Source: Verrucomicrobiota bacterium (lineage in GTDB: Bacteria > Verrucomicrobiota > Verrucomicrobiia > Chthoniobacterales > UBA6821). Taken from it: DNA of 11,552 nucleotides. The translations under genes and the position numbers were made by a program. The notes under the pieces were generated by a model. The model searched no databases. It saw only the letters and a list, made by a program, of their open reading frames with translations, and was not told the origin of the DNA. Every line of letters begins with the position of its first letter. The stretch's first letter is position 1. Of this stretch, positions 2,135-10,866 are shown piece by piece. The stretch spans positions 1 through 11,552 of the forward strand of contig WBXG01000057.1 of assembly GCA_008932965.1 (NCBI GenBank), given 5' to 3'.

Positions 2135-2170
2135 TGTTTGTGATTTTCAATGAACCCCCGAAATCTTATA

Positions 2171-2198
2171 ACACTTCAGTATGAAATATTCGGGCTAA
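2171..2198 (+). repeat. Solo right terminus of the TTARCCCGGATATTTCAT repeat family, with a possible minimal two-terminus remnant from 2157
   Basis: Positions 2171-2194 (acacttcagtatgaaatattcggg) are identical over 24 nt to 9148-9171, the right end of the full copy at 8989-9175. The upstream stretch cccgaaatcttata (2157-2170) is a degenerate inverted partner. The terminal CTAA (2195-2198) read on the minus strand is TTAG, and it contains the TAG stop of ORF 2195-2977. Confidence 0.8.
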
Positions 2199-2977
2199 TC
2201 CTCGGAATCGGTGATTCCTCCTTGAAGTTGATCAACCTCTTCGGAAGCACGTGAAAGTTGTTGTATACCAAAAGCAAACTCGCCTTGGAGATCTCTCGAC
2301 TTTCTATGCATGATTGTATACTGATTTTGATTTTCAGGTGGTATGATCACTCCTTTATCTAAGCCTTCATTAACGACCTCTTTATAGTAATACATAGCAC
2401 TTTGTATTTCACTAAGAGAAGCCTTAGATTCTTGAATCGTTTCTGAAATAAATCTTGGAAGATCCTCTTCTTGCAATAGTTCAGTTGAATTTAAGGGTCG
2501 GTAGAGATGTGTTCTTTGATTTAAGTAATTTGATGCTTCGGTGATGACCTCTTTAGCTCTGTTAAGGAGACGATCTGCTTTTTCGAGTTTTTCTCCCCAG
2601 CTAGTAAGCGCATCATGGAGCTTTTCTTCATGGGTAGGTATGATTTCATCATTCTTCAGAAGATCTTGTGAGGAGTTAGTGGAGATAGGAGTAAATTTTT
2701 CTAATGGTGAGGAGCCTCTCTTAGTGGGGGATTCCTCTTCTGTAAATTCAGAAGAAGTTGTGTCAATGGATTGACTACTAGGTGTCACACTTCTATCACT
2801 AGGTGTCACACTATGAGGGCTCTGAAGTCCAATGGGCCGAAAAGGAGATGAATTGCTAAGGCTTTCTATCGATTGAGAATTGAAATGACCTATCGCTGGG
2901 TTGCTACTAGTTTCGGGTTCTAAAGAGTGTGAACCAGAGTCTCTTGAAATAGAAGTTGTTGGTATTTTTGCATTCAT
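2195..2977 (-). CDS. Hypothetical protein with a Ser/Thr/Pro-rich low-complexity N-terminal half and a charged, probably helical C-terminal half
   Basis: 260-aa ORF starting 15 bp downstream of gltX on the same strand. I see no recognisable catalytic motif, signal peptide or TM segment. The first ~110 aa are S/T/P/E-rich. The last ~150 aa are rich in E/K/L/Q (EKLHDALTSWGEKLEKADRLLNRAKEVITEA...). Calling it coding rests on ORF length and operon position only. Confidence 0.55.
   Translation of the reverse strand: MNAKIPTTSISRDSGSHSLEPETSSNPAIGHFNSQSIESLSNSSPFRPIGLQSPHSVTPSDRSVTPSSQSIDTTSSEFTEEESPTKRGSSPLEKFTPISTNSSQDLLKNDEIIPTHEEKLHDALTSWGEKLEKADRLLNRAKEVITEASNYLNQRTHLYRPLNSTELLQEEDLPRFISETIQESKASLSEIQSAMYYYKEVVNEGLDKGVIIPPENQNQYTIMHRKSRDLQGEFAFGIQQLSRASEEVDQLQGGITDSED
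2777..2812 (-). repeat. In-frame 21-bp direct duplication inside the hypothetical ORF
   Basis: actaggtgtcacact occurs at 2777-2791 and again at 2798-2812, a 21-bp period. It encodes the duplicated peptide SVTPS(DR)SVTPS in the low-complexity N-terminal half. Confidence 0.85.
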
Positions 2978-2992
2978 CTAATGAGGTTTTTT

Positions 2993-4312
2993 TTAATGAG
3001 TTCCTGCAAGTAATCGTTGGATCGTTTTCTCCCGTCCTAGGATTTCAAACATTTCGTAGAGACCGGCTCCTACGGAACGTCCACTCACCGCGACGCGTGC
3101 AGGATGCACGAGTTCACCAGTTTTTACTCCAAGCTTCGATGCAGTCTCTTTCAACCTAGCCTCAATGGAAGTGGCCTCCCAGTCTTCAAGCAACAATAGA
3201 GCCTCTGCTAAAGCTTCTAGGCGGTTATGAGCATCTGGACTTGAGAGATTTTTTGCAACTGCAGTTTCATCATAAGGAAAATCATCGCTGAAAAAACAAC
3301 GCACCCAATCGGGAAGATCAGGGAGTGATTTGATTTTGGGTTTTACAATGGAGAGCACTTTTTCAAGCATCTCCCAGCTCTCCCAAGTGATACCTGCTTT
3401 TTCTAGAAACGGGAGTGCAAGTTCGGTATAACGGGCCAAATCCATATGTAGTAAATATTGGCCATTCATCCAAAAACATTTGTCGACATCAAAAGCAGCA
3501 CTACGGCGATTGATATTGTGAAGTTCAAAAAGTTGGATTACTTCGGCTGTCTCAAGGATCTCACGATTATCTTTTGGAGACCATCCTAAGAGGGAAAGAT
3601 AGTTGCGCACTGCTTCTGGAGCATATCCTTCCTGTGGGTAAATTCCCATGTTGGCCCCTTGATCTCGTTTGCTCATTTTACTTCCGTCACGATTCAAGAT
3701 GAGTGGGGTATGGGCAAAATGGGGAGGCTCTGCCCCAAGAGCTTTGTAGAGTTCCAAATGTTTTGGAGTATTTGAAAGATGATCTTCACCTCGAATGACG
3801 TGACTAATCTGCATCTCAATATCATCGACAACGTTGACAAAATGAAAAATCCAAGAGCCATCAGGACGACGGAGTGTAATATCAGGATGAGTTCCAGGAT
3901 TAGTGAGATCAAACTCAATACTTCCACAAATTAGGTCATGAACGATCACTTTTTGACGCGGGGAGCGAAAGCGGATCGCCCCCTTTTCTTCATAGAGGTG
4001 CCCTCCCATCTCCAGACGCTGGAGATACTCTTCGTAAATCGCATTGCGTTCACTCTGATAGTAAGGACCATAGTTTCCTCCTTTTTGAGGACCTTCATCC
4101 CAGTCCAACCCTAGCCAATGAAGTCCATTAAAGATGATCTGCTTTGCCTCCTCAGTATTACGACTATGATCGGTATCTTCAACTCTTAGAATAAATGTTC
4201 CAGCATGCTTGCGTGCGTAAATCCAGTTAAAAAGAGCTGTGCGAGCACCCCCTACGTGAAGAAGGCCCGTGGGTGAGGGAGCAAAACGAGTGCGAATAGG
4301 ACGAGTTGGCAT
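2993..4312 (-). CDS. gltX: Glutamyl-tRNA synthetase (class I)
   Basis: 439-aa ORF. It has the HIGH-type motif PSPTGLLHVGGARTALFNW, the KMSKS motif GSKMSKRDQG, and the conserved GluRS blocks RVEDTD and GPYYQSER. Confidence 0.92.
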   Translation of the reverse strand: MPTRPIRTRFAPSPTGLLHVGGARTALFNWIYARKHAGTFILRVEDTDHSRNTEEAKQIIFNGLHWLGLDWDEGPQKGGNYGPYYQSERNAIYEEYLQRLEMGGHLYEEKGAIRFRSPRQKVIVHDLICGSIEFDLTNPGTHPDITLRRPDGSWIFHFVNVVDDIEMQISHVIRGEDHLSNTPKHLELYKALGAEPPHFAHTPLILNRDGSKMSKRDQGANMGIYPQEGYAPEAVRNYLSLLGWSPKDNREILETAEVIQLFELHNINRRSAAFDVDKCFWMNGQYLLHMDLARYTELALPFLEKAGITWESWEMLEKVLSIVKPKIKSLPDLPDWVRCFFSDDFPYDETAVAKNLSSPDAHNRLEALAEALLLLEDWEATSIEARLKETASKLGVKTGELVHPARVAVSGRSVGAGLYEMFEILGREKTIQRLLAGTH

Positions 4313-4385
4313 AGTTTTGGAAGATAATAGTTCCCTACCAGTAATACAGATCCAAGAACAATGCCAGCTATAACTTGATTTTCCG

Positions 4386-4659
4386 TTAACCCAAATATTT
4401 CATCCTGATCGTGACGAGGAGGCCTCGAAGGCTGATAGAGAACCACCGGCGGTTGGGAGACCGCGGGGGAGACTGCCGGAGACTTCCTTGAGGCAGCCCT
4501 GAAAGGGCGAGACGAGCTGGAGCGAGCGAGTCAACGCAGGCGAGTATTTTGACTCAGGGCTGTATGAGTCCCTGCCGCCCAAGTCAAAATGGAGTCTAGC
4601 ACAGCATCCCACTGACTACCCGGCTTCCTTAGTAGATCAGGATGGAATATTTGGTTTAA
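4386..4659 (-). mobile_element. MITE-like non-autonomous element, copy A (274 bp, opposite orientation to copies C and D)
   Basis: The left end is ttaacccaaatatttcatcctgatc. The reverse complement of the right end is ttaaaccaaatattccatcctgatc, giving a 25-bp TIR with 2 mismatches. Both ends are flanked by TA within TTAA. The reverse complement of the interior (attttgacttgggcggcagggactcatacagccc) matches copy C (attttgacttggacagtagggactcc) and copy D (ggcagtaggaactcatacagccc). The cagccttcgaggcctcctcgtcacgatcagg arm matches copy B. The core is about 60-68% GC against about 45% for the flanks. No credible ORF is present. Confidence 0.85.
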
Positions 4660-4811
4660 TCTGCGGGCTAGAAAAAATGATGAACCAATTTCAAGATGAA
4701 ATGACTCGTTTTTTGTGGGTCGAAGGAGGGTCAGGAGAAAATGTGAATAACTTGCGAGTAACCAGTACCTCAAAAATTGTCTCAACAGTTCTCTTTTTGT
4801 GATTGACGGTA

Positions 4812-4856
4812 GTGTGAAATAGTGGGAGAAAGTGGGGGTAAATGGAGCGAAATGGT
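4812..4856 (+). promoter_or_regulatory. Putative MraZ operator made of five direct repeat boxes at exact 10-bp phasing
   Basis: The boxes are GTGTG (4812), GTGGG (4822), GTGGG (4832), ATGGA (4842) and ATGGT (4852), each followed by an A-rich 5-nt spacer. The array ends 31 bp upstream of the mraZ ATG. MraZ proteins are known to autoregulate through phased TGGGN/GTGG-type direct repeats in the dcw promoter region. Confidence 0.65.
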
Positions 4857-4887
4857 TAAATTTACCATTCCTCAAAATTAGTAGTTT

Positions 4888-5340
4888 ATGTCCTCCTCTC
4901 TTCCCACATCATTGATTTACGCTGGCACTTTTGAGCGTGTCATGGATGGGAAGCATCGTGTGACCATCCCAGCAGCTTGGTTGGCACAGGGAATTAGCGA
5001 ATTTCACGCGATTCCAAATCCAAGCGAAGAATGTCTTATTGTGATGCCTCCTCATGAATTTCAAGTGATCGAGGAACGTATTGAACAGAGTGGGGCTGCT
5101 GCTCCAGAACGTCGTAAAGCGATTCGACAGTTTTATAGTCGTGCACGTGCTATCTGCGCAGATGCTCAAGGACGGATCCTTTTTTCCGAAGAACAATGTA
5201 GTCCACTCCAACTCAAAGGAGAGGTGGTGCTTGTTGGTGGCCGGAGTCGTTTTGAAATCTGGAATGCAACAAGGTGGCATGCAGTTGCTACCGAGGAGCA
5301 TGATTCTTTCAGAAATATAGCTCATCTCATTGGACTTTAA
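4888..5340 (+). CDS. mraZ: Transcriptional regulator MraZ
   Basis: 150-aa ORF in first position of the dcw cluster. It has two SpoVT/AbrB-like half-domains with the MraZ DxxxR signature: MDGKHRVTIPAAW and DAQGRILFSEEQ. The start could instead be the TTG at 4912, which would give the usual short N-terminus (M)IYAGTF. Confidence 0.85.
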   Translation: MSSSLPTSLIYAGTFERVMDGKHRVTIPAAWLAQGISEFHAIPNPSEECLIVMPPHEFQVIEERIEQSGAAAPERRKAIRQFYSRARAICADAQGRILFSEEQCSPLQLKGEVVLVGGRSRFEIWNATRWHAVATEEHDSFRNIAHLIGL

Positions 5341-5547
5341 TTTTCTCGAAATATGTCCTTTATTCCACTTCCACGACTCTTTCAATCCTCTCTGTTCCAA
5401 AAAATGGAAAGAGAGATGAGTCCTTTCCTCTGGTGCCACGGCCGAAAGTCGTTATCCCTCCCTTCTCACAAGCCATCACCTTCCTTTGATTGTACTAGCG
5501 ATCGAGTATTTTCTTTGAGAGCACCTTTTCAAAAGAAAGCTGTTCCT

Positions 5548-6516
5548 ATGGCAAAAAAGAAGGAGACCCAAGGGAAGATGGATGAGCACAAGCCATTTGT
5601 CCATAAATCGGTATTAGCTAAGGAAGTCGTTGATTTTTTGCAACCTAAACCAGGAATGACCATTCTAGATGGAACGCTTGGGGGTGGGGGGCATACCGAG
5701 TTGTTTTTAAAAGCAGGAGCAACTGTTATTGGACTCGACCGAGATCCTGAGGCTCTTGCTTTTGCTTCAGAGCGGCTGAAAATATATGGTGACCGTTTTA
5801 TTCCTAAAGAAGGAAATTATGTGGATGCAGATAAATATCTCTCAGCCATTGGTATTCCAAGAGTGGATGGAATTTTGCTCGATTTAGGAGTCTCTTCCTA
5901 TCAGCTAGATACTGCTGAAAGAGGATTTTCTTTTCAAAAAGAGGGTCCACTTGACATGCGCATGGGTAATTCTTCTACAACTGCTGCAGACATTATTAAT
6001 AGCGCCCCTCTGAGTGAGTTGCTTTCTATTTTTCGCAATTATGGCGACGAGCCACGTGCCATGATGATGGCGACACGTATCATTCGAGAGCGTCAGCATC
6101 AAGTCATCACAACAACCACACAACTATCATCAATCGTGGCTGCTGGAATGCCTCTAGGACCGCGTCACCCAGCAACACGTATTTTTCAAGCATTACGTAT
6201 TGCTGTGAATGAAGAGATTAGCCAGCTTGAAGAGGCACTACCTCGACTTTCCAATATTCTAGAGCCAAAAGGACTGATCGGAGGCGGACGTCTGGCAATC
6301 ATTACCTTTCATTCTCTGGAGGATCGCCCCGTTAAAAGATTCTTTCGTAAACATGCAGCCGTTGAGCTCGATGACCCAACATGGGCAGCACCTCGACCCA
6401 ATCCCGATCGTATTTTTACTCTTCCTAAAAATTGGTCATTAGAAGCTTCCCCAGAGGAGATCTCCAAAAATCCACGAGCTCGTAGTGCTAGATTACGGAT
6501 GGCCGAGCACCTTTAA
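5548..6516 (+). CDS. rsmH: 16S rRNA (cytosine1402-N4)-methyltransferase RsmH/MraW
   Basis: Conserved RsmH blocks are present: HKSVLAKEVVDFL, the SAM-binding DGTLGGGGH, LDLGVSSYQLD, RGFSF, GPLDMRM, FHSLEDRPVK and NPRARSARLR. The ORF is open from 5353, but the first 65 codons are low-complexity and lie upstream of where RsmH homology begins. ATG 5548 gives 322 aa, and ATG 5578, which follows AAGGAG at 5561-5566, is the alternative. Both give a normal length. Confidence 0.85.
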   Translation: MAKKKETQGKMDEHKPFVHKSVLAKEVVDFLQPKPGMTILDGTLGGGGHTELFLKAGATVIGLDRDPEALAFASERLKIYGDRFIPKEGNYVDADKYLSAIGIPRVDGILLDLGVSSYQLDTAERGFSFQKEGPLDMRMGNSSTTAADIINSAPLSELLSIFRNYGDEPRAMMMATRIIRERQHQVITTTTQLSSIVAAGMPLGPRHPATRIFQALRIAVNEEISQLEEALPRLSNILEPKGLIGGGRLAIITFHSLEDRPVKRFFRKHAAVELDDPTWAAPRPNPDRIFTLPKNWSLEASPEEISKNPRARSARLRMAEHL

Positions 6517-6547
6517 GGATCGATGTTCCTAATAACATTTATTTTTT

Positions 6548-6579
6548 CTAGCCTGCATATTTCATACAAATCGTGACAG
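6548..6579. repeat. Solo terminus of the same repeat family in the rsmH-ftsL spacer
   Basis: ctagcctgcatatttcatacaaatcgtgacag aligns with the left end of copy B, ttagcccggatatttcatgctgaatcgtgacga, at roughly 25 of 32 positions. The alignment includes the atatttcat and aatcgtgac blocks. No inverted partner is visible nearby. Confidence 0.7.
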
Positions 6580-6619
6580 TTTTTTCACCTCCCTATCAAA
6601 AAAAGCGATTAATACAACA

Positions 6620-6994
6620 ATGAACCGTCTTCATACACAACCCTCTAATCGTCGTCGGACAAATAATGGTATTGAGGTCCCTTTGCTCGCCCAATGGCTT
6701 GTGGTGTTTTTTATGCTCGGCTTGTTAGGTCTCTTTTTTGTCTACCTAAAAAATCAGCAACATGCACTTGGAGAACAGACACGCCTTGTAGAACAAAAAA
6801 TAACAGAACTACGTGCGCATCATGATGCCCTTAATGCAAAAGTCACTGCACTCACCTCTCGTGGAGCATTACAGCGACGACTCGATGAAAAATATTTGGA
6901 TCTTATCCCAATTACAGAAACAGCAATCGCAAGAACAAATCCTACTTCTAACTCAAGTGAAGAGAAAGCAATGAGGACGGCTTCATTTCCTTAG
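6620..6994 (+). CDS. ftsL: Cell division protein FtsL-like (bitopic membrane protein with a coiled coil)
   Basis: 124-aa ORF in the canonical position between rsmH and ftsI. It has a basic N-terminus (NRRRTNN), one hydrophobic TM segment (LLAQWLVVFFMLGLLGLFFVYL), then a heptad-like helical region (QTRLVEQKITELRAHHDALNAKVTAL). The call rests on topology and synteny, not on sequence motifs. Its TAG stop (6992-6994) lies inside the terminus of repeat copy B. Confidence 0.65.
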   Translation: MNRLHTQPSNRRRTNNGIEVPLLAQWLVVFFMLGLLGLFFVYLKNQQHALGEQTRLVEQKITELRAHHDALNAKVTALTSRGALQRRLDEKYLDLIPITETAIARTNPTSNSSEEKAMRTASFP

Positions 6995-7170
6995 CCCGGA
7001 TATTTCATGCTGAATCGTGACGAGGAAGCTGCAAGGGGAGATGGATTTTTTGTTGAGCTCGAAGTCTCCTCGAGCAGGCGCACGCAGCCTTCATCAGCCT
7101 TTATCACTAGCCTTATCCCATCAGCCTTCGCAGCCTCTTCGTCACGATCAGGGTGAAATATCTGGGCTAA
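6991..7170 (+). mobile_element. MITE-like element, copy B (180 bp) with long imperfect TIRs of about 45-50 bp
   Basis: The left end is ttagcccggatatttcatgctgaatcgtgacgaggaagctgcaagg. The reverse complement of the right end is ttagcccagatatttcaccctgatcgtgacgaagaggctgcgaagg, matching at about 44 of 50 aligned positions. It is flanked by TA on both sides (tTAg...cTAa). A central palindrome gagctcgaagtctcctcgagc is present. The overlapping ORFs 7017-7202(+) and 6991-7230(-) are translated repeat sequence, not genes. Confidence 0.88.
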
Positions 7171-7213
7171 ACCTTCTTTCCTTCTTTGTAGGTTCCTACT
7201 AACATTTAAGGTT

Positions 7214-8992
7214 GTGCAAAAAAAATTCACCTCTGCAGCACTGGGTCAACGCATTGGATTAGTCTGTTCTTTTGTAGCATTGATTTTTACCTTTTTTGCA
7301 TTTCGTCTCGTCAATCTTCAGGTGGGAGGACATGAAAAGTTTTCTCATCTTGCAGCAGAAAAGCATGGTGTAAAGCAGCCTATTGCTGCAGTACGAGGAA
7401 ATATTTTTGACCGACATGGAGAGATCTTGGCAGTCAATGTTCCCGTTCGAACGGTCTATGCAGATGGAACCCATATCAAGGACCCTTTGGCGCTTGCTCA
7501 TGTAGCAGCTCCTTTTCTTGGTCTTCCAGAAAAAGAATTGGCTCTCAAACTTGCTAGCAAACGTCCTTATGTGGTTATTCGCTCCGGTATTTCTGAATTA
7601 GATGCTACCGCAATGATGCGAGCCCTGGAGGAATCGAAACTCTCTGGACTCTACTTACAGCCTGGTTCTGAGCGATCTTATCCTAATGGAAAAATGCTCT
7701 CTCATGTGCTCGGTTTTGTCGATCATAGCGGTCATGGAATCGATGGTATTGAACGTACTTTTGACAAAGAATTAGCTGGGCGGGATGGCTATCGTCATAT
7801 TGAACATGATCGAAAGGGACTTGAAATTGTGCTCTATCGAGGCCAAGAAGAACCAGTAATTAATGGAACCAATATTTATCTCACAATCGATATGGGTCTT
7901 CAGGCGATTCTAGAAAAACAGCTTGATAGTGCTATGGAGACCTATAAGCCAGCTGGAGCAACGGCGATTTTAGTAGATCCCAAGACGGGGGAGATTTTAG
8001 CAATGGGAAGCCGTCCTAATTACGATCCCAATCATTACAGTGAGGCAACGCCTGAAGAGCTTCGTAATCGTGCTGTTACTGATATGTACGAGCCGGGTTC
8101 CGTTTTTAAAGTGGTTGCTGCTTCCGGTGCTATCAATGAAGGAATTGTAACAGAGAACAGTACTATTTTTTGTGAGCATGGGTCTTTTTTATATGGAGGG
8201 AAAATTCTTCATGATGCCCATGGAGATTATTTTGGAGATCTTTCTGTGAGGGATGTATTAGTACACTCTTCCAATATCGGTGCAGCTAAGATTGCGATGA
8301 AAATGGGAGATACAAAGTATTACGAGTATGTAAGGCGTTTTGGTTTTGGTGAAAAAACCAACATTCCCTTACCTGGAGAAATTTCTGGTCTCGTGAATCC
8401 TCCGGCACGCTGGGATAAATTAACTATCACTCGTATGGCCATGGGACATGCCATTGCGGCAACTCCGATTCAAGTGGTCATGGAGATTGCGTGTATTGCC
8501 AATGATGGGAAATTGATGGTACCCCAACTCATCCATCATCGGGATCAGGAGAAGGAGAAAATGGAGCCGATAGTGCGCCGTGAGATTATTTCTTCGAAAG
8601 TAGCCGAAATTATTAATGGGGCTCTCATCGATGTTGTTGCGCGTGGAACGGCTCAACATGCTAAAATGGACGGGTACTCCGTTGCTGGAAAAACTGGAAC
8701 AGCACAAAAAATTAATACGCATGGTGGTTACTTAGAGGGGCGTTACATCGTCTCCTTTGCTGGCTATTTTCCGGCTGAAAAACCACGGATTGCTGGTCTT
8801 GTTGTGATTGACGATGCTCGTATTGGAAGTATTGCAAATTTTGGAGGTCTTGTGGCTGCCCCTATTTTTTCGAAAATCGGAGAAGCTTCCGCACGTTATC
8901 TTGACCTGCTTCCAAGCTCAACAGGAGCTTCAGTAAGTAAAGAAAATGCTTCATCCCCTTCTTCAAGTATTCCTAAAGTGGAAGCCCCTTAA
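7214..8992 (+). CDS. ftsI: Peptidoglycan D,D-transpeptidase FtsI (class B PBP, PBP3)
   Basis: 592-aa ORF with a GTG start. It has an N-terminal TM anchor (IGLVCSFVALIFTFFAF), a PBP dimerisation region, and the three transpeptidase motifs: SxxK (GSVFK), SxN (HSSN) and KTG (GKTGTA). The TAA stop (8990-8992) lies inside the TTAA terminus of repeat copy C. Confidence 0.9.
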   Translation: MQKKFTSAALGQRIGLVCSFVALIFTFFAFRLVNLQVGGHEKFSHLAAEKHGVKQPIAAVRGNIFDRHGEILAVNVPVRTVYADGTHIKDPLALAHVAAPFLGLPEKELALKLASKRPYVVIRSGISELDATAMMRALEESKLSGLYLQPGSERSYPNGKMLSHVLGFVDHSGHGIDGIERTFDKELAGRDGYRHIEHDRKGLEIVLYRGQEEPVINGTNIYLTIDMGLQAILEKQLDSAMETYKPAGATAILVDPKTGEILAMGSRPNYDPNHYSEATPEELRNRAVTDMYEPGSVFKVVAASGAINEGIVTENSTIFCEHGSFLYGGKILHDAHGDYFGDLSVRDVLVHSSNIGAAKIAMKMGDTKYYEYVRRFGFGEKTNIPLPGEISGLVNPPARWDKLTITRMAMGHAIAATPIQVVMEIACIANDGKLMVPQLIHHRDQEKEKMEPIVRREIISSKVAEIINGALIDVVARGTAQHAKMDGYSVAGKTGTAQKINTHGGYLEGRYIVSFAGYFPAEKPRIAGLVVIDDARIGSIANFGGLVAAPIFSKIGEASARYLDLLPSSTGASVSKENASSPSSSIPKVEAP

Positions 8993-9175
8993 CCCGGATA
9001 TTTCATACCGATTCTGCTGCGTCTTGCGAACACCTGATGGATACTGAGTCAGCCTCCTATTTTGACTTGGACAGTAGGGACTCCACCAATCCGGTATCAC
9101 CATCCTTCGTCCTTCTTGTGCTAATAAGCTTTGCACGGCGCCTCATGACACTTCAGTATGAAATATTCGGGTTAA
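8989..9175 (+). mobile_element. MITE-like element, copy C (187 bp)
   Basis: The left end is ttaacccggatatttcataccga. The reverse complement of the right end is ttaacccgaatatttcatactga, matching at 21 of 23 positions. It is flanked by TA within TTAA at both ends. The interior is homologous to copy D and to the reverse complement of copy A. An 8-T run (9176-9183) follows immediately, then the murE ATG at 9186. Confidence 0.88.
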
Positions 9176-9185
9176 TTTTTTTTCT

Positions 9186-10706
9186 ATGATTTTACAAGAT
9201 CTCCTCTCCTTTACAGAAGTTATTTCAATGAGTGGTCCAGCTGATGTTGGATCGACTCTTGACATCAAGCAGCTCTGTTTTGATTCACGAAAGGTACTAC
9301 AAGGGTCGCTGTTTTTTGCATTGCCGGGTACTCACAAAAAAGGGAGCACTTTTGTGCAAGAGGCAATGGAACGAGGAGCTGCAGCTGTGGTGAGTGAAGA
9401 AATAATCAATCAAAATTCTCAATGTAAGGTTCCATTCATTTGTGTTCCCAATGCTCGACGCTCCATGGCTGATCTAGCGTGTGCATTTTATCATTTTCCG
9501 AGTCAAACATTATCTCTCTGTGGCGTTACAGGAACTAATGGGAAGACAACCTCAAGTTTGCTGGTGCGTCATATTTGTGAAACTAATGGACGTGCGTGTG
9601 GTCTTCTTGGAACCATAGAATATGTTTTACCAGGACGAGTCGAAGAGGCCTCTCATACAACACCTGAATCCATTGGAATTCAATCGATGCTTGCAGAGAT
9701 GAGGGGCGGGGGATTTAAGGGAGTTGCTATGGAGGTTTCAAGTCATGCTCTTTCCCAAGAAAGAGTAAGAGGAATCGAATTTGATGTTGCCATTTTTACA
9801 AATCTTACACAAGACCACCTTGACTATCATGGATCGATGGAGGCTTATTTTAATGCCAAGGCAGCGCTGTTCGAATCCCTTCCCTATCAAAAAACAAAAC
9901 GAGGACGTGCTGTTATTAATGGAGACGATCGTTATGGACGTTTGCTCTTAGACCGTTTGGAGAAACTCCCCATCAAAGTTCCCACGATCACGTATGGACA
10001 ATCGAGTGGAGTTGATTTTCGTGCGACCAATATTGAGTATACTCCGAGCGGTACCATTTTTTGTTTAGAAGCTCGAAAAAGAAGCTACTTAGTGAGATCC
10101 CCATTGATTGGGATTTTTAATGTTTATAATGTTTTAGGAGCACTTGCCTCTGCTAGCTCTATGGGTTTAGAACTCCGTCGTGCGATTAAAGCACTTGAAA
10201 CAGCACCGCAAATTCCAGGGCGCTTACAACGAGTGGAGGGAAAGAAAAATTATCAAGTCTTTATTGATTATGCTCACACCCCTGATGCTCTTGAAAATGT
10301 TCTTCGTTCTTTACAGTACTTGCGGCCTGGTCGTCTTGTGGTTGTTTTTGGATGTGGGGGGGATCGCGACCGTGGCAAGAGGCCGCTCATGGCAGCTGCA
10401 GCAGAACGCTATGCAGATCACATTATCGTCACTACTGATAATCCACGCGGGGAGGATCCTACGGCGATTATCAAAGAAGTGACTCAAGGATTTAGACAAC
10501 AAAAATATTGCTGTATCTGCGATCGACGGGAGGCCATTTCTAGAGCTATCGAACAAGCATTGCCATATGATATTATTGTTATTGCTGGTAAGGGCCATGA
10601 GACCTACCAAGAGGTGAATGGAGTGCGATCTCCTTTTGATGATGCTAAGGTAGCCCAACGAGCAATGCTTCTGAATCAAAGGCCTGAACCCGAGAAGTGG
10701 AGCTAG
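9186..10706 (+). CDS. murE: UDP-N-acetylmuramoyl-L-alanyl-D-glutamate--2,6-diaminopimelate ligase
   Basis: 506-aa ORF with the Mur ligase P-loop GVTGTNGKTT, the conserved blocks HTTPES, EVSSHAL and FTNLTQDHLDYHG, and the DNPR motif (TTDNPRGEDP) associated with meso-DAP specificity. The TAG stop (10704-10706) lies in the terminus of repeat copy D. Confidence 0.92.
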   Translation: MILQDLLSFTEVISMSGPADVGSTLDIKQLCFDSRKVLQGSLFFALPGTHKKGSTFVQEAMERGAAAVVSEEIINQNSQCKVPFICVPNARRSMADLACAFYHFPSQTLSLCGVTGTNGKTTSSLLVRHICETNGRACGLLGTIEYVLPGRVEEASHTTPESIGIQSMLAEMRGGGFKGVAMEVSSHALSQERVRGIEFDVAIFTNLTQDHLDYHGSMEAYFNAKAALFESLPYQKTKRGRAVINGDDRYGRLLLDRLEKLPIKVPTITYGQSSGVDFRATNIEYTPSGTIFCLEARKRSYLVRSPLIGIFNVYNVLGALASASSMGLELRRAIKALETAPQIPGRLQRVEGKKNYQVFIDYAHTPDALENVLRSLQYLRPGRLVVVFGCGGDRDRGKRPLMAAAAERYADHIIVTTDNPRGEDPTAIIKEVTQGFRQQKYCCICDRREAISRAIEQALPYDIIVIAGKGHETYQEVNGVRSPFDDAKVAQRAMLLNQRPEPEKWS

Positions 10707-10866
10707 CCCGGATATTTCATACTCAATCTATTACGGCTTGTGGAAAGTTCACTATTACTGCGTTGGTCGCGAGTTGTTATGAAGGGAGGCAGTAGGAACT
10801 CATACAGCCCGGCATCACAATCCTTCGCCCGTCTTGAAGTAATGGACTTTGCACGCCTCCTCATTT
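10703..10866 (+). mobile_element. MITE-like element, copy D (about 164 bp, right terminus lost or degenerate)
   Basis: The left end ctagcccggatatttcatac is intact. The interior is co-linear with copy C: ggcagtaggaactcatacagcccggcatcacaatccttcgcccgtcttg against gacagtagggactccaccaatccggtatcaccatccttcgtccttcttg, and gactttgcacgcctcctcat against gctttgcacggcgcctcat. No ...tatgaaatattcggg right end follows. Confidence 0.8.

Follow-up and report, generated by a model that had tools for sequence, protein, structure and literature searches.

Repeats with IS1380-type ends in the spacers and at the stop codons of a Chthoniobacterales division and cell wall gene cluster

Miniature inverted-repeat transposable elements, or MITEs, in operon spacers are already familiar, as exemplified by the Correia elements (CREE/NEMIS) of Neisseria and the QMITEs of Coxiella. 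Correia elements are short (~100–160 bp), high-copy intergenic MITEs with inverted-repeat ends and co-transcribed hairpins that also occur within the division and cell wall (dcw) cluster, where one of them is described, in a passage of PMC2649163 that cites Snyder et al. 2003, as supplying a promoter for dcaC. In Coxiella burnetii, QMITE1 and QMITE2 extend a few bases into the 3′ ends of functional genes and sometimes provide C-terminal residues or the stop codon (PMC5896051). The IS1380 transposases serve as the prokaryotic outgroup of piggyBac in phylogenies (PMC10813416). Here we describe a family of MITE-like repeats in an 11,552-bp contig (WBXG01000057.1 of assembly GCA_008932965.1; hereafter the window) that carries the first part of a dcw cluster. 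The window organism is an uncultured freshwater Chthoniobacterales (Verrucomicrobiota) bacterium. In the reading that we favor, with a probability of about 85%, the repeats would be old, decayed copies of MITEs with IS1380-family-type ends, which insert at the tetranucleotide YTAR (Y, C or T; R, A or G), including YTAR sites that hold a stop codon. The family is unnamed, real, well delimited, and of a known kind; full-text searches, which covered part of the literature, returned no account of MITEs derived from IS1380 elements and none of this terminus. It adds a very abundant MITE family, tied to a specific IS1380 clade, to uncultured freshwater Verrucomicrobiota, and it leaves the knowledge of the MITE mechanism unchanged.

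The window contains 9 matches to the terminus TTARCCCRGATATTTCAT with at most 3 mismatches, compared with an average of 0.03 and at most 1 in 200 shuffles, which confirms the original prediction, made from the letters of the window, that at least 9 termini of the same family fall within 11.5 kb. The matches are located at 2181–2198 (minus strand), 4386–4403 (plus), 4642–4659 (minus), 6548–6565 (plus), 6991–7008 (plus), 7153–7170 (minus), 8989–9006 (plus), 9158–9175 (minus), and 10703–10720 (plus). Together they make up 3 complete elements (274, 180, and 187 bp), 1 right-truncated copy, and 2 solo ends, and the element coordinates first proposed were correct (B, C, and D complete; E without a right end; and the solo ends, the first of which spans 2165–2198).

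MITE B (4386–4659, no strand assigned) is a complete long-form copy of 274 bp that occupies the spacer between the divergent gltX and mraZ genes and has TTAA at both flanks, 25-nt arms (92% identity), and a 93-nt GC-rich module at 4444–4534. Its best relative among the matches listed, L127 from the same sample as the window, is 81.5% identical over 265 nt (labels such as L121 and L218 denote individual contigs or loci fetched for comparison with the window). MITE C (6991–7170, plus strand), a complete short-form copy of 180 bp in the ftsL–ftsI spacer, is flanked by TTAG and CTAA, has arms of ~54 nt at 81–87% identity, and is 75% identical to a 176-nt family consensus. MITE D (8989–9175, plus strand) is a complete short-form copy of 187 bp in the ftsI–murE spacer, with TTAA at both flanks and 23-nt arms (91% identity). 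MITE E (10703–10866, plus strand), in the murE–murF spacer, has no right end and is 82% identical to positions 343–520 of L217 (158 nt). The solo ends are terminus A (2165–2198, minus strand; TTAG followed by CCCGAATATTTCATACTGAAGTG on that strand), which is located in the spacer between aroE and a hypothetical gene and is 91% identical to the right end of D over 35 nt, and left terminus S (6548–6579, plus strand; CTAG followed by CCTGCATATTTCATACAAATCGTGACAG, with 3 mismatches), which is located in the rsmH–ftsL spacer and is also present in conspecific contigs. Directly beside B lies what may be a tenth terminus, a fragment at 4662–4672 that reads CTAGCCCGCAG on the minus strand; with flanking sequence included (ATTTTTTCTAGCCYGCA), the right border of B at 4658–4678 is 90% complementary over 21 nt to positions 6541–6561 at S. 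B may have inserted into or beside this fragment, which is short and matches weakly.

The 3 complete elements have the size (below ~400 bp), inverted repeats (arms of 23–54 nt), and non-coding interior of bacterial MITEs. The open reading frames (ORFs) inside the elements are short, differ among copies, and have no family match, in agreement with the earlier statement that the elements carry no credible ORF. Gene calls of 54–82 aa in L121, L123, and L221 fall within elements; in metagenome-assembled genomes (MAGs) of this group, the family disturbs annotation through such spurious small genes, changes the C-termini of proteins, and breaks contigs. The identity between C and D, given before as ~65%, was 62% overall, and the idea of a MITE-like family whose ends are conserved while its interiors have diverged is supported. 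The claim that the interiors (~53–68% GC) exceed the genes (~45%) stands for B and roughly for C and fails for D and E: B has 54.7% GC (59.8% in its interior), C has 51.1%, D 46.5%, and E 47.6%, compared with 44.2% for the genes, and only B and C are clearly above gene GC.

The ends of these elements are those of a clade of the IS1380 family of insertion sequences (ISs). In the ISPa33/ISMaq4 clade, the end CCCGGATTTCTCAT is nearly identical to CCCGGATATTTCAT of the window elements, it starts with CC, as IS1380-family ends do as a rule, and a 4-bp YTAR is duplicated. Both ISfinder-named, plasmid-annotated members have CCCGGATTTCTCAT ends, with a CTAA duplication in ISPa33 and a CTAG duplication in ISMaq4, and uncultured full-length members of the clade carry the exact window terminus. 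Scanning one genome per prokaryotic species with the pattern TARCCCRRATATTTCAT gave at least 119 stretches from many phyla. Among the matches listed, the sequence that follows TARCCCRRATATTTCAT marks real element ends and not chance matches, and in the full-length elements opposed ends 1.56–1.69 kb apart enclose one gene of 437–461 aa, the product of which matches PF13701 (E = 6e-162) and the NCBIfam model NF033539, “IS1380 family transposase” (417 bits; cut-off 180). These full-length IS1380-family elements include L064 1860–3491, L033 1383–3052, and those of L014, L026, L098, L084, L076, L078, and L179, with direct repeats of CTAA/CTAA in L033, L014, and L098 and of CTAG/CTAG in L064, L026, L076, and L078. 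The 14-nt terminus is identical in L033, L064, L014, L084, L179, and L150 and is one base off (CCCGGATATTTCAC) in L224, and all of these encode NF033539/PF13701 proteins. The L224 copy (5902–7483, CTAG/CTAG) lies in a Chthoniobacterales MAG of 61% GC, and P0244, from Chthoniobacteraceae, is a second IS1380-type partner candidate within the order. In L064, the full IS copy abuts an adjacent terminus of opposite orientation, and one CTAG is common to both.

Among the matches listed, 59 paired elements have flanks that are identical and palindromic in 15 cases, identical, non-palindromic, and direct in 9, inverted in 3, and mostly one base apart in the rest. On the evidence of these counts and of the direct repeats of the full-length ISs, we take the element proper to start at CCCGGATATTTCAT and the adjoining YTAR to be a 4-bp target-site duplication, a type common to the full-length ISs (CTAA, CTAG) and the MITEs. 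The outer TTA(A/G), formerly counted as part of the terminus, is thus target duplication instead. Within the window, B and D conform (TTAA/TTAA) and C does not (TTAG/CTAA).

The parent IS type with the same inverted repeats, a search for which had been suggested, therefore exists, in the form of the full-length IS1380-family elements; the candidate family named for it, IS630/Tc1-mariner with a TA duplication, is refuted by the IS1380-family transposases that elements with the same ends encode and by the duplicated YTAR. An IS630-type MITE would duplicate TA, and the R or Y beside the TA would be the first base of the element. TA is indeed present in all flanks, and the TTAG and CTAA of C fit a TA duplication with G/C paired terminal bases; however, the full-length elements with these ends encode IS1380-family and not IS630-family transposases, and direct repeats of 4 non-palindromic bases (CTAA/CTAA, TTAG/TTAG) flank 9 of the paired elements above, compared with 3 that have inverted flanks. 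We rejected the model on these 2 grounds and regard it as hardly credible; the CC with which the ends begin, in keeping with the IS1380 family, also counts against it.

Unlike the IS1380 ISs, the window elements are 180–274 bp in length, encode no transposase, and have only the outer 14–19 nt in common with the ISs, so that they would be non-autonomous derivatives or mimics. Their distribution was followed by a metagenome scan with the stricter terminus TARCCCGNATATTTCATACTG, which gave at least 92 stretches, mostly of 40–47% GC like the window and one of them (L127) from the window's own sample. The genome and metagenome scans together confirm that the family has copies elsewhere. At least 92 complete elements were extracted; among the matches listed, 88 of 92 belong to one homology cluster, and their sizes have 2 modes, 170–189 bp (44 copies) and 260–279 bp (22 copies), near 176 and 270 bp. 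The long form of ~270 bp is the short backbone of 176 bp plus the 93-nt GC-rich module. These data bear on the possibility that the short forms were never mobile, each copy being the relic, at its original site, of a separate full-length IS1380-type insertion from which an internal deletion removed the transposase gene. Full-length ISs with the same ends exist, also on stop codons (dnaE in L224), and solo ends are common, as such relics would predict. By contrast, at dozens of unrelated loci in different genomes the short elements have interiors that are homologous to one another, as the single homology cluster attests; no full-length IS examined among the matches listed has subterminal sequence homologous to these interiors; and independent deletions would not yield 2 sharp size classes. 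We therefore consider in-place decay of full-length ISs to be very unlikely.

Among the matches listed, copies elsewhere are up to 90% identical to the consensus and 95–97% identical to one another, whereas the window copies are 60–75% identical to the consensus and 76–82% identical to their best relatives over 133–265 nt; judged by this divergence, the window copies appear old. In the genome scan, among the matches listed, short paired elements of 70–450 bp occur in Deltaproteobacteria, Gammaproteobacteria, Planctomycetota, Hydrogenedentota, and Verrucomicrobiota, and the interiors of the window elements are homologous solely to copies from Spartobacteria and Chthoniobacter MAGs. Short elements with the same 14-nt terminus are found in L013, L050, L065, L075, and L094 (Deltaproteobacteria), L017, L091, and L111 (Hydrogenedentota), and L093 (Pirellulales). 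They have a subterminal pattern (..TCGYGAC/GAG..GCGAAG..GATGG..) in common with the Chthoniobacterales family that is present in no full-length IS among the matches listed, which hints that the MITE backbone is old or has spread horizontally. Minimal palindromes that consist of 2 opposed termini alone, e.g., CCCGGATATTTCATGAAATATCCGGG, with YTAR flanks, are found in Gammaproteobacteria, Nitrospinaceae, and Desulfoluna (L101 1029–1060, L060 174–199, L119 3809–3855, and L099 878–944) and may represent the smallest form able to move or footprints that imprecise loss left behind.

The 93-nt module (e.g., window 4444–4534 in B, L143 1700–1797, L153 8124–8221, and L121 5392–5480) is predicted to fold into 3 adjacent hairpins, 2 of which have GNRA loop caps (GGGA and GUAA). 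The type I module (34 copies) lies at the MITE center in a single orientation and is 85–99% identical to its own consensus, with most copies above 90%; the type II module (window B, L121, L127, L169, and L177) is inverted relative to the backbone and lies at a different position, and the module therefore looks like an independent nested insertion. One module stem differs between the 2 types by compensatory changes. Within type I, selection on the predicted hairpins was not detected, as variability is not lower at paired than at unpaired sites, and stem substitutions mostly break pairs (60 vs 27). Rfam gives no match to the module, and the orientation of the module is not biased relative to the flanking genes.

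In 4 cases in the window, the YTAR that precedes CCCGG holds the stop codon of the upstream gene: TAG at 2195–2197 in A closes the 260-aa hypothetical gene, TAG at 6992–6994 at the left flank of C closes ftsL, TAA at 8990–8992 at the left flank of D closes ftsI, and TAG at 10704–10706 in E closes murE. The same coincidence recurs among 269 termini from 78 low-GC loci (among the matches listed, as are all counts for this set). YTAR flanks are present at 85% of them, approximately one third of these flanks being forced by the search pattern and the others free, and comprise TTAA (131), CTAG (46), TTAG (34), and CTAA (18). At 28 termini, an open frame of 100 or more codons has the TAR of the flank as its stop codon, compared with at most 3 termini at each of the other upstream offsets (1–60 nt). 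A second peak of 10 termini comprises frames that run through the terminus to the TGA of CATACTGA, 16 nt into the element; the ftsI of L121 (9784–9806), the final residues of which are encoded by the MITE, is an example. Autonomous elements likewise use stop codons, since the right-hand CTAG duplication of the L224 IS (5902–7486) holds the dnaE stop codon.

These positions have a simple, checkable explanation, namely that the duplicated target includes the stop. YTAR contains TAA or TAG on both strands, so that an element inserting at a stop codon restores the stop. In the mechanism that we propose, the MITE family would be at high copy number in low-GC freshwater Chthoniobacterales, with an inverted repeat, CCCGGATATTTCAT, that is the terminal repeat of one IS1380-family clade. 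A DDE transposase of the IS1380 family, supplied in trans, would bind both ends, excise or copy the element, and insert it at YTAR (mostly TTAA) with duplication of the tetranucleotide; in an insertion exactly at a stop codon, the left copy of the duplication would close the reading frame. In a packed operon with original spacers of 7–55 nt, the stop codon would be among the few harmless targets, and the 4 window copies would abut stops for this reason and because insertion there regenerates the stop; the same rule would account for the repeated invasion of an essential, tightly packed operon. Insertions would have piled up over a long time, lengthened the cluster by ~1.5 kb, and then been altered by point mutation, truncation, and nesting, leaving co-transcribed passengers able to form long hairpins. 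A rough estimate from the frequency of YTAR in spacers is that ~10% of the harmless YTAR sites are stop codons, compared with ~20% observed per element; thus target preference plus purifying selection suffice, and no special stop-codon targeting is needed. In L125, an uninvaded relative, the ftsL and murE stops lie in TTAA.

The overlap with 3′ gene ends resembles that of the QMITEs, in that 28 of the 269 termini give the stop and 10 give a short tail. The QMITEs differ in sequence and host, and the cause of their 3′-end preference was left open, whereas here the stop codon within the target motif accounts for the preference. The likeness to the piggyBac transposons of eukaryotes, of which seamless excision is the hallmark, lies in TTAA as the commonest flank (131 of 269) and in the ends, which start with CCC in both. 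The differences are that the target here is the looser YTAR and that the enzymes are only distantly related.

Junction occupancy varies among species, and relatives of decreasing MurE identity carry fewer and fewer copies, down to none. Four independent contigs from other samples are 99.0–99.5% identical to the window over its length and retain every copy; therefore, the elements are not assembly artefacts. In L218, a longer conspecific contig, a fragment and a full 177-bp copy lie in the murF–mraY spacer, 2 nested copies lie between murD and lysM, a remnant lies between lysM and ftsW, and a solo end makes up the entire 21-nt spacer between the convergent murG and citrate synthase stops, so that 9 of the 12 junctions from gltX to the citrate synthase gene (gltA) are occupied in the window species. 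L121 (MurE 89% identical) has neither A (aroE–hypothetical gene spacer of 7 nt vs 60 nt in the window) nor E (murE–murF spacer of 61 nt) and no recognizable copy at ftsL–ftsI, and 2 extra tandem copies fill its murG–gltA spacer (442 nt). L123 (MurE 77%) has one remnant in the cluster, ftsI and murE overlap, and its murE–murF spacer is 58 nt without E. L125 (MurE 72%) has no copy, and its junctions measure 7–55 nt (ftsL–ftsI, 20 nt; ftsI–murE, 7 nt; murE–murF, 23 nt, E absent). The dcw spacers of the window are thus abnormally long compared with those of L125, in line with the earlier remark that dcw clusters are normally tightly packed, and the mraZ–murG stretch measures 13.7 kb in the window species vs 12.25 kb in L125. 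Site polymorphism, the other expectation for a mobile family, exists between related species and not among the 4 conspecific contigs.

The gltX–mraZ and ftsI–murE junctions are occupied in both the window species and L121. At the former, B and the L121 copy (5267–5539) are inverted relative to each other (70% identity reversed vs 52% forward) within flanking sequence common to both, and a 12-nt indel lies beside the left end; the third-codon-position identity of murE between the 2 genomes is 68%. The opposite orientation points either to inversion between the arms or to insertions that took place independently at nearly the same position.

An alternative is that the elements were domesticated and are kept by selection, their hairpins in the dcw mRNA serving as processing, stabilizing, or attenuating signals that set the ratios of ftsL, ftsI, murE, and murF. 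The predicted folds are very stable, at −117 kcal/mol for B (z = −5.0 vs shuffles), −93.7 kcal/mol for C (z = −9.5), and −62 kcal/mol for D (z = −5.4); all copies are fixed in the 4 conspecific contigs; 2 junctions hold a copy in the window species and in L121 alike; double changes at several columns preserve the pairing of the arms; and the Correia elements of Neisseria affect neighboring genes, in one case within the dcw cluster (PMC2649163). However, the elements have no orientation bias relative to transcription (16:12) or for the end that abuts a stop (9:7), and the contexts of the elements comprise 28 co-directional, 13 convergent, and 10 divergent gene pairs. A fixed function would not tolerate copies that are truncated (E), solo (A and S), or inverted between species (B), and relatives do with junctions of 7–55 nt. 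A promoter and terminator consensus scan gave no site within any element, and the Rfam query proposed for the family gave no match at E values up to 1 in the window and none overlapping the elements in 5 loci with well-preserved copies. Element density is equal in unrelated loci. We hence regard domestication as quite unlikely; “selection on the ends”, one of the 2 explanations originally offered for conserved termini, is not needed to explain the pattern, and we conclude that the elements are probably selfish passengers. A broader proposal, in which the dcw copies are co-opted as stop-codon hairpins that uncouple translation and set processing or stability from ftsL to murF while the YTAR-specific IS1380 clade uses stops as safe landing pads across phyla, seems to us unlikely. 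The Correia elements differ from those of the window in having no sequence similarity to them, a TA duplication, and no known parent IS with the same ends; they also carry integration host factor (IHF) sites and promoter halves, and nothing comparable was found in the window elements. Nor do the elements belong to the repetitive extragenic palindromes and mosaic elements of the REP/BIME class, which are imperfect palindromes of 20–40 nt with a conserved GTAG-type head, lack a target duplication, and are associated with tyrosine transposases (RAYTs): they are 176–274 bp with IS-type inverted repeats and YTAR duplications, and no RAYT was seen in any locus.

Several observations weigh against old IS1380-type MITEs mobilized in trans: (i) within-species empty sites were sought in the 4 conspecific contigs and none was found, and the case for mobility is wholly comparative; (ii) every window copy is at least 18% diverged from any other sampled copy among the matches listed, and neither this nor (i) points to recent mobility in the species; (iii) the flanks of C (TTAG left, CTAA right) are an inverted and not a direct duplication; (iv) the full-length ISs lie in other organisms, and, in at least 13 full-length copies compared among the matches listed, none had a MITE-like interior, the match being limited to the outer 14–19 nt; (v) no IS1380 transposase was found in the window or, by tblastn, in ~650 kb of MITE-rich low-GC loci; and (vi) paired changes between subfamilies preserve the complementarity of the arms (11 of 29 predicted pairs; 25 short copies aligned), which could reflect structural constraint rather than pure decay. 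The paired changes follow the subfamilies, and descent from different master copies may explain them.

The enrichment that had been implied for the dcw locus does not set it apart from other loci. The window has 0.69 termini per kb (at most 2 mismatches), and L218 has 14 termini in its 14.3-kb cluster and 1 in 7.2 kb of flanks; 7–14-kb loci of related organisms (L152, L153, L158, L160, and L168) have 0.70–1.11 termini per kb. Because these loci were chosen for containing an element, the comparison is biased and shows only that the dcw density is not exceptional. L153 and L158 carry ordinary genes unrelated to the dcw cluster (e.g., clpC-like, mcsB-like, bamA, transketolase-type E1 beta subunit, recJ, IMPDH-family, and type II secretion system F protein). 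The dcw cluster is invaded, not uniquely enriched.

The gene map of the window was confirmed. Upstream on the minus strand are a partial purB, aroE (1214–2134), the 260-aa hypothetical gene (2195–2977), and gltX (2993–4312); on the plus strand follow mraZ (4888–5340), rsmH (5353–6516), an ftsL-like gene (6620–6994), ftsI (7214–8992), murE (9186–10706), and the start of murF (from 10924). The nearest MurE homologues carry the labels of Verrucomicrobia or Chthoniobacterales MAGs. The rsmH open frame encodes 387 aa, and its N-terminus is ~65 aa longer than those of its relatives (322–342 aa). The Pfam domain begins at residue 82, gene callers differ across contigs (387, 384, 370, and 322 aa), and the true start is probably the ATG at 5548. 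A gene for a LysM-domain protein of 220–240 aa lies between murD and ftsW within the dcw cluster (L218 16339–17001, L121 15800–16468, and L125 15536–16213).

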